Origin: Giardia intestinalis
Taxonomy: Eukaryota
Direction: 5' to 3' (one strand)
Assembly: GCA_000002435.2 (NCBI GenBank)
Contig: CM018792.1
Length of the DNA: 64,000 bases
How positions within the stretch are numbered: the stretch's first letter is position 1; each line of letters opens with the position of its first letter. The position numbers were made by a program, and so were the translations under genes. Of the stretch, positions 19,709-20,673 are shown piece by piece. The notes under the pieces were generated by a model. It worked only from the letters and a program-made list of their open reading frames with translations. It made no database searches and had not been told where the DNA came from.

Positions 19709-20673
19709 ATGGCTCGAGTAGTGTCCTATGTGTATGTTTCTCCTTCCATCTAACACCCAGCATTGATAATAGCTCATACTCCATTAACGGGGACTTCTCT
19801 CCCACCGTCTTGGCCCAAGAGTCGGAAGCATGCCAATTTCTATTTGCACAAGATAACCATAGTAATAGCGAGTCTCTTGCATCTGTTGTTGGAATGGGGC
19901 GCAAAGCACGCCTTATCTGCCCGCTTACGAACGACCCTGAACACATTCGTGAAAGTGTTCTAAAGCTGCAGTCTGACAGCCTGTACCCGATTGAACCATC
20001 AGCCTTTTTGACAGCTATCCAGATAGCTCTCCTTTCTCTTCGTCACAGGCCAACCCAAACGATGGCGTCATCGATAGTAGCATTCGTTTACAGCCCCTTA
20101 GAATTAAGTGTGGATAAGGAGGACATGACCAATTTGGGCAGGGAGCTAAGCAGTGAAGCCATTGACATTACGCTCTATGTCTTTGGAGAGCATGCTCAGG
20201 CGAATGCACAGCTTTTACAGTACCTCGTGGATGCTTCGGCTGCAGGGAGCAATAGGATAAATGCGACCGTAACCCATATTAATGGGAATTCCCTGTATGA
20301 CTTTGTCAATTCCTATGTCCAGACCCTCATGCTTGGAAACATGGCTACGGGCTACATCAATTACGACGACGATGAAGATGACATTGAGCTCCAGTTGGCT
20401 TTGCAGCTGAGTAGACAAGAGGCGGAGGAAGCTGCGCGTCGCAACCAGCAAGGTAGTGCAGAGCATGAGGATGCTGTAGATGCAGAGGCATCTGCCCCAC
20501 CCTCTACTGACACTTCTTCTGCACCAACCACTTTCAAGGGAACAGATGCGCAGCCCTCAATTTTTGGTATAGAACGTGAAGATAGGCTTGGTCCGACGCA
20601 GGATGAGAATTCCATAAACTCAGACGATTTGGCAAAAGATCTGGACGCCATGGACGACTCTGACCCAAAGTAA
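19709..20673 (+). CDS. RPN10: 26S proteasome regulatory subunit Rpn10/PSMD4 (vWA domain plus C-terminal UIM). It is a two-exon gene: join(19709..19731, 19761..20673), about 312 aa.
   Basis: Exon 2, which the ORF track shows from a TTG at 19810, aligns with the Rpn10 vWA domain from about residue 30 onward (ACQFLFAQDNHSNSESLASVVGMGRKARLICPLTNDPEH...LTAIQIALLSLRHR... against AVNLLCGAKTQSNPENTVGILTMAGKG...LTAAIQIAHLALKHR). It carries a UIM (DDEDDIELQLALQLSRQEAEEAARR). The missing N-terminus is supplied by a 23-nt exon 1 (ATGGCTCGAGTAGTGTCCTATGT) directly after aaaattaaaATG. When spliced the protein begins MARVVSYVIDNSSYSINGDFSPTVLAQESEAC..., which matches Rpn10 ([32 protein letters not shown]...). 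The stop TAA is at 20671..20673. Confidence 0.85.
19732..19760 (+). other. Spliceosomal intron (29 nt) in the Rpn10 gene: GTATGTTTCTCCTTCCATCTAACACCCAG
   Basis: The 5' end GTATGTT and the fused branch-point/acceptor CTAACACCCAG match the consensus of the few known Giardia cis-introns (GTATGTT ... [AC]CT[AG]AC[AC]CACAG). Removing the intron restores the frame and the conserved Rpn10 N-terminus. Confidence 0.8.

Follow-up and report, generated by a model that had tools for sequence, protein, structure and literature searches.

Cis-spliceosomal introns of Giardia follow the published consensus 5'-STATG ... HCTRACMCVCAG-3', and the known introns span 29-220 bp (PMC4085374). Other short cis-introns of Giardia, comparable with the one described here, are those of the [2Fe-2S] ferredoxin gene (35 nt), the dynein light chain gene (32 nt), GL50803_15525 (33 nt) and GL50803_86945 (36 nt). 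An intron in the gene for the proteasome subunit Rpn10 has also been reported: Franzen et al. 2013 (PMC3610916) credited Roy et al. 2012 (Mol Biol Evol) with "an intron in an Rpn10 homolog (GL50803_15604)", and we follow this attribution as it is given in the citing papers PMC3610916 and PMC10711314. TopHat detected three of the five known introns, including that of Rpn10, in each of the four isolates tested (PMC3610916). Seabolt et al. 2023 listed the Rpn10 intron as intron 28 (NC_051859.1 2,099,731-2,099,760, plus strand, 29 bp, GT-AG, GC 44.83%, exon flanks ATGT/CATT) and detected it in 62 of the 70 RNA-seq runs; its splicing efficiency was 70.1%, about 30% of the reads being unspliced, and the other Giardia control introns were spliced with efficiencies of 56-77% (PMC10711314). 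The position of the Rpn10 intron is reported to be common to other eukaryotes (PMC6545626), and the G. muris genome paper reported that three of eight cis-introns are retained, the Rpn10 orthologue there being GMRT_12286 (290 aa).

The protein itself was characterized by Sinha et al. 2015 (PMC4352536) as GlRpn10, a protein of 259 aa whose open reading frame was amplified from genomic DNA; the word "intron" is absent from the text. Pfam found no VWA domain in this protein, and the authors took it for "a new natural variant" in which the VWA domain is reduced. The 259-aa open reading frame complemented yeast rpn10-delta only partially, an antibody raised against recombinant GlRpn10 gave a band of ~28 kDa in Giardia, and ubiquitin binding by GlRpn10 was demonstrated experimentally (PMC4352536). 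A non-proteasomal pool of GlRpn10 at the flagellar pores was also reported in 2015. The same paper cited a tandem-affinity purification with tagged Rpt1, followed by mass spectrometry, which recovered GL50803_15604 (PMC4352536).

Here, we analysed a 64-kb stretch of DNA of Giardia intestinalis WB (ATCC 50803) (the window) that carries this gene. The Rpn10 intron is real, but it was already published in 2012 and is already annotated in the current RefSeq/GiardiaDB model, and is therefore not new. The intron in the window and that of Roy et al. 2012, intron 28 of PMC10711314, are the same object, with nothing different between them. Its GC content in the window (13/29, 44.83%) equals that of intron 28, and the exact offset of 2,080,000 between the window and NC_051859.1 makes it very probable that the window corresponds to NC_051859.1:2,080,001-2,144,000. 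The suggestion in the original prediction that an Rpn10 intron had been reported for Giardia was thus correct. Table 1 of PMC10711314 labels intron 28 "position 22, phase 1"; as phases are usually counted, the intron follows nucleotide 23 and is in phase 2.

Structure of the Rpn10 gene

The gene at 19709-20673 is the Rpn10/PSMD4 orthologue GL50803_15604. ATG 19709 opens its coding sequence, and all elements quoted below were present in the window sequence at the coordinates given with them. Exon 1 (ATGGCTCGAGTAGTGTCCTATGT, 19709-19731, plus strand) is a mini-exon of 23 nt, the ATG plus 20 nt, and holds the seven codons of MARVVSY together with two bases of codon 8 (7 2/3 codons). It had been predicted to lie directly behind an initiator, and an initiator-like AT-rich element (AAAATTAAA, 19700-19708, plus strand) does abut ATG 19709. 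As judged by Giardia promoters in general, this element is a putative core promoter or transcription start region.

The GT-AG cis-spliceosomal intron (GTATGTTTCTCCTTCCATCTAACACCCAG, 19732-19760, plus strand) is 29 nt long and interrupts the gene after the second base of codon 8. Its extended 5' splice site GTATGTT (19732-19738, plus strand) fits the STATG of PMC4085374, and its fused branch-point/3' splice-site motif TCTAACACCCAG (19749-19760, plus strand) ends in the acceptor AG at 19759-19760. Exon 2 (19761-20673, plus strand) runs from the third base of codon 8 to residue 311 and closes with the stop codon TAA at 20671-20673. Joining 19731 to 19761 gave a coding sequence of 936 nt with no internal stop, in which codon 8 (Val) is formed across the junction as GT|C. 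The product, which starts MARVVSYVIDNSSYSINGDFSPTVLAQESEACQFLF, has 311 aa and a mass of 33.9 kDa, compared with 259 aa and 28.35 kDa for the form that begins at the first ATG of exon 2, ATG 19894. A tryptic peptide of the spliced protein, VVSYVIDNSSYSINGDF... (VVSYVIDNSSYSINGDFSPTVLAQESEACQFLFAQDNHSNSESLASVVGMGR), spans the junction. The spliced protein was exactly identical to RefSeq XP_001705695.2 / KAE8304327.1, "26S proteasome regulatory subunit Rpn10", of ATCC 50803, so the comparison with the reference gene model that had been suggested came out in favour of the spliced structure. The 259-aa model is an earlier version of this record, XP_001705695.1 ("hypothetical protein GL50803_15604"), which has been superseded.

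If the intron is retained, the frame of ATG 19709 meets a stop after 14 codons, the TAA at 19751-19753 within CTAAC. The frame of exon 2 is open from 19708; TTG 19810 is the first ATG, GTG or TTG in it, and the first ATG is at 19894. As the original prediction had stated, the mechanical list of open reading frames misses exon 1, beginning Rpn10 at TTG 19810. The N-terminal residues that it had noted as absent from this call are indeed absent, but exon 1 supplies only 7 2/3 codons of them and the other 16 (IDNSSYSINGDFSPTV) are encoded in exon 2, ahead of its first start-like codon. The 29 nt placed between the mini-exon and the start of the listed frame are in fact the distance to the start of exon 2 at 19761, not to 19810.

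Two other candidates at the locus were rejected. An alternative 5' GT at 19730, two bases upstream, led to immediate stops. A minus-strand open reading frame of 80 aa (19704-19946) was regarded as a chance occurrence, as it had no support and, according to PMC6545626, the locus has no antisense open reading frame or transcript.

Splice motifs and their expected frequency

The 29-nt segment of Rpn10 is an exact fit to the intron consensus of PMC4085374, as the claim of canonical Giardia splice motifs required. The loose pattern GTATGT...CTRAC...AG was found once in the window against 0.51 expected, which is not significant alone; because such a scan is uninformative by itself, the published consensus and a shuffle test were used in its place. 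For the 3' motif HCTRACMCVCAG, the one in the Rpn10 intron was the single match in the 64 kb when both strands were scanned, against 0.29 expected, and the full published motif within 60 nt was expected 0.015 times per window (1000 dinucleotide shuffles). Taken alone, the motif count is only modestly improbable, and the decisive evidence for the intron is its position, the repair of the frame, homology and conservation.

The branch sequence AACUAACAC pairs with the Giardia U2 candidate (PMC3510501), and by analogy with it A 19753, which is separated by 7 nt from the acceptor AG, is the predicted branch adenosine. Folding of the RNA of 19700-19790 showed nothing unusual (z = -0.34), in agreement with the MFE of 0.0 kcal/mol given in PMC10711314. 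Like the other short Giardia introns, the Rpn10 intron has an extended 5' site and a fused branch/3' site HCTRACMCVCAG, lies strongly towards the 5' end of its gene, is of a length indivisible by three and forms no stable secondary structure. At 29 nt it is the shortest known Giardia intron (published range 29-220 nt), and its host is a conserved eukaryotic gene.

Homology of the spliced product to Rpn10

The identification of the gene as Rpn10/PSMD4 held up in both searches of the spliced protein. Pfam VWA_2 matched the 311-aa protein with an E-value of 9.7e-11 over residues 7-114 (profile positions 3-101 of 107), and the region encoding this match (19727-20079, plus strand) spans the intron. 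A phmmer search against PDB matched Rpn10/PSMD4/S5a chains of rat, human, yeast, S. pombe and plants with E-values of 1e-18 to 1e-12, including ~1e-18 to human S5a/PSMD4 and ~1e-14 to yeast Rpn10, and the VWA homology to the solved Rpn10 structures ran on to about residue 170-205. The 259-aa protein read from ATG 19894 gave no Pfam match at all. The outcome that had been named as evidence against the intron, a downstream ATG that would provide a complete VWA domain in the absence of exon 1, was not observed.

The alignments to PDB chains began with query residue 8 at residue 9 of human PSMD4 and with query residue 7 at residue 8 of yeast Rpn10, so that the spliced N-terminus MARVVSYVIDNSSYSINGDF... 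lies in register with the human and yeast N-termini to within one residue. A fungal Rpn10 aligned with the spliced protein from Met1 with a single gap, at a low identity of ~30%. These in-register alignments indicate that ATG 19709 is the orthologous N-terminus and bear out the proposal that splicing restores the conserved beginning of the protein.

The Giardia protein resembles human (6epc_W), yeast (3jco_W) and S. pombe (2x5n_A) Rpn10 in having an N-terminal VWA domain from residue 2-3, the motif VxDNSxYxxNGDF and then a ubiquitin-interacting motif (UIM). The single UIM (DEDDIELQLALQLSRQEAEE, residues ~212-231; 20371-20430, plus strand) was aligned to UIM1 of human PSMD4 and is invariant across the Giardia lineages and a fungal Rpn10; no separate Pfam UIM match was obtained in the spliced protein at E <= 0.01. 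Giardia Rpn10 has one UIM, as does the yeast protein, whereas human PSMD4 has two, and it differs from other Rpn10 proteins in an acidic C-terminal tail that is specific to Giardia.

Conservation of the intron across Giardia lineages

The loci of other lineages were reached through database proteins with 98% (L005/6), 78% (L001), 74% (L002-4) and 75% (L007) identity, all of which had been shortened by ORF-style gene calling. Every lineage locus examined (L001, L002, L005 and L007) contained exon 1 and the intron, which, counting the window, was 29 nt long and at the same site in five lineages. GTATGTT and TCTAACAC[C/T]CAG were invariant; the variable intron positions were only 8, 10, 11, 12, 14, 17 and 26, of which position 26 (C/T), the single one to vary within the 3' splice motif, is permitted by the consensus. 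Such strict conservation of the intron despite ~25% protein divergence fits selective retention of the few introns that remain in Giardia.

The surrounding sequence showed the signature of coding DNA. Exon 1 was 23 nt long in all lineages, and five of its seven variable columns were third codon positions in the frame of ATG 19709. In the 133 nt of exon 2 before ATG 19894, the variable columns fell 5/4/28 by codon position (p = 1.7e-7) and there were no indels. This third-position bias in exon 1 and in exon 2 before ATG 19894 indicates that the stretch is translated, and ribosomes can reach exon 2 upstream of ATG 19894 in frame only by way of exon 1 and a spliced junction. Immediately upstream, TAAAA[T/C]TAAAATG was invariant or nearly so in the five lineages, while the intergenic DNA further upstream carried indels and substitutions. 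With the length of exon 1 and the spacing of the motifs fixed, retention of the intron ends translation after 14 residues in all four lineages compared. The first in-frame Met of exon 2 is residue 37 in L001, L002 and L007 and residue 53 in WB, and this difference indicates that there is no conserved internal start.

Gene models of the orthologues were also inspected. The public models of DH (ESU37130.1, 287 aa) and P15 (EFO62964.1, 259 aa) are shortened and labelled "hypothetical", and the metagenome, Logan and ENA gene calls in other lineages begin at residue 25, 37 or later, past the true N-terminus. ORF-based or prokaryote-style gene callers shorten Rpn10, and the DH and P15 models and the calls in other lineages remain in that state.

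Splicing of the Rpn10 pre-mRNA and alternative readings

The best explanation of the locus, with a probability of about 97%, is that a 29-nt intron is spliced from the Rpn10 pre-mRNA to give a 311-aa Rpn10 with a complete VWA domain and one UIM. Transcription would start at the AT-rich initiator that abuts ATG 19709 and would produce a pre-mRNA whose coding sequence is interrupted, after nucleotide 23, by a U2-type-like Giardia intron of 29 nt. By analogy with other Giardia introns, the reduced spliceosome would use GUAUGUU as the extended 5' site and UCUAACACCCAG as the fused branch point and acceptor, the predicted branch A being 7 nt from the AG. Splicing would join GT|C into codon 8 (Val), and the mature mRNA would be translated into the 33.9-kDa protein of 311 aa. 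From unspliced RNA, translation from the first AUG would give no more than a peptide of 14 residues, as it would run into the in-frame UAA of CUAAC.

It is very unlikely that both forms are made, with spliced mRNA giving the full-length protein and intron-retaining or internally initiated transcripts giving a truncated ~28 kDa protein with a separate extraproteasomal role. A splicing efficiency of ~70% and not 100%, the ~28 kDa band and the non-proteasomal flagellar-pore pool are all in favour of two forms. Against them, the unspliced RNA carries the 14-codon upstream open reading frame and three further out-of-frame AUGs before 19894, no internal Met is conserved across the lineages, and other Giardia control introns are likewise 56-77% efficient, so that ~70% is probably the baseline of the measurement and does not reflect regulation. 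As leaders in Giardia are very short, translation would also generally be expected to begin at their first AUG, which counts against an internal start. The more specific proposal, that the ~30% of unspliced transcripts are functional and give a ~28 kDa Rpn10 without the first VWA strands, the intron being an isoform switch, is very unlikely in view of the four AUGs before 19894, the lack of a conserved internal Met and the efficiencies of the control introns. If it were true, the truncated form might not dock on the proteasome and might instead form the extraproteasomal flagellar-pore pool of 2015, and one of the very few introns of Giardia would work as an isoform switch.

That there is no functional intron, and that translation starts at ATG 19894 to give an Rpn10 of 259 aa in which the VWA domain is naturally reduced (Sinha et al. 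2015), is highly improbable. This proposal accords with the original gene model XP_001705695.1, with the agreement between the ~28 kDa Western band and 259 aa, and with the partial complementation of yeast rpn10-delta by the 259-aa open reading frame. However, the 133 nt before ATG 19894 evolve as coding sequence (5/4/28, no indels), and their translation includes VIDNSxYxxNGDF, the motif best conserved in Rpn10. On the transcript, 19894 comes after four other ATGs, and it has no AT-rich initiator in front of it. Moreover, RNA-seq junctions are on record (PMC3610916, PMC10711314), and the open reading frame of 2015 came from genomic DNA, in a paper that is silent on an intron.

The probability that the resemblance to splice motifs arose by chance, or that the apparent break in the frame stems from an error of assembly or sequencing, is negligible, since the identical architecture in independent assemblies of at least four other lineages refutes it and RNA evidence exists in the literature, and although the loose motif is expected ~0.5 times per window, the strict motif is expected only 0.015 times.

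The reported reduction of the VWA domain of GlRpn10

Splicing of the intron, our preferred reading, bears directly on the reduced VWA domain described for GlRpn10. The null Pfam result of PMC4352536 was reproduced with the 259-aa protein, and the VWA match returned with the 311-aa protein, in which 52 N-terminal residues are restored. The return of the match suggests that the outdated gene model is the simplest explanation of the "reduction", and the reduced-VWA conclusion for GlRpn10 is most likely an annotation artefact. The yeast complementation, the homology modelling and the interpretation of size in PMC4352536 would accordingly need to be redone with the 311-aa cDNA. The ~28 kDa band is nearer to 28.35 kDa (259 aa) than to 33.9 kDa (311 aa) and counts against a model in which only the spliced form exists; it could be due to inexact sizing, to processing of the N-terminus or to a truncated isoform present in minor amounts. 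Our literature search found no paper that reconciles the Rpn10 intron with the reduced-VWA claim of 2015. Extraproteasomal pools of GlRpn10 are mentioned, with reference to the 2015 paper, in a preprint of 2024, which refers to introns in one general remark, unconnected to Rpn10.

Genomic context of the Rpn10 gene

A search of Rfam with both strands of the whole 64-kb window returned no family at the gathering score. Rpn10 lies between two closely spaced genes. The upstream open reading frame of 382 aa (18519-19667) ends 41 nt before Rpn10, its stop overlapping AGTAAA, and the convergent gene for a TRM1-type tRNA methyltransferase of 532 aa (20716-22314, minus strand) lies 42 nt from the 3' end of Rpn10. 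AGTAAA motifs at 19660-19672 and 20669-20681 overlap or directly follow the stops of the upstream open reading frame and of Rpn10, respectively. The two AGTAAA(C) motifs at the Rpn10 stop codon (20669-20681, plus strand), which overlap or adjoin, are putative polyadenylation signals, Giardia polyadenylation signals being of the AGTRAA type. Spacers of 41 and 42 nt with AGTAAA at the stops are typical of Giardia gene packing. The synteny table of the G. muris genome paper places GL50803_15604, at 312, beside a tRNA dimethyltransferase of 532 residues, GL50803_12235, which matches the 532-aa neighbour in the window. A block of 300 nt at 18500-18800, situated in the 5' part of the upstream 382-aa open reading frame, has 67% GC compared with ~45-50% around it, and long overlapping open reading frames are open there in several frames on both strands.
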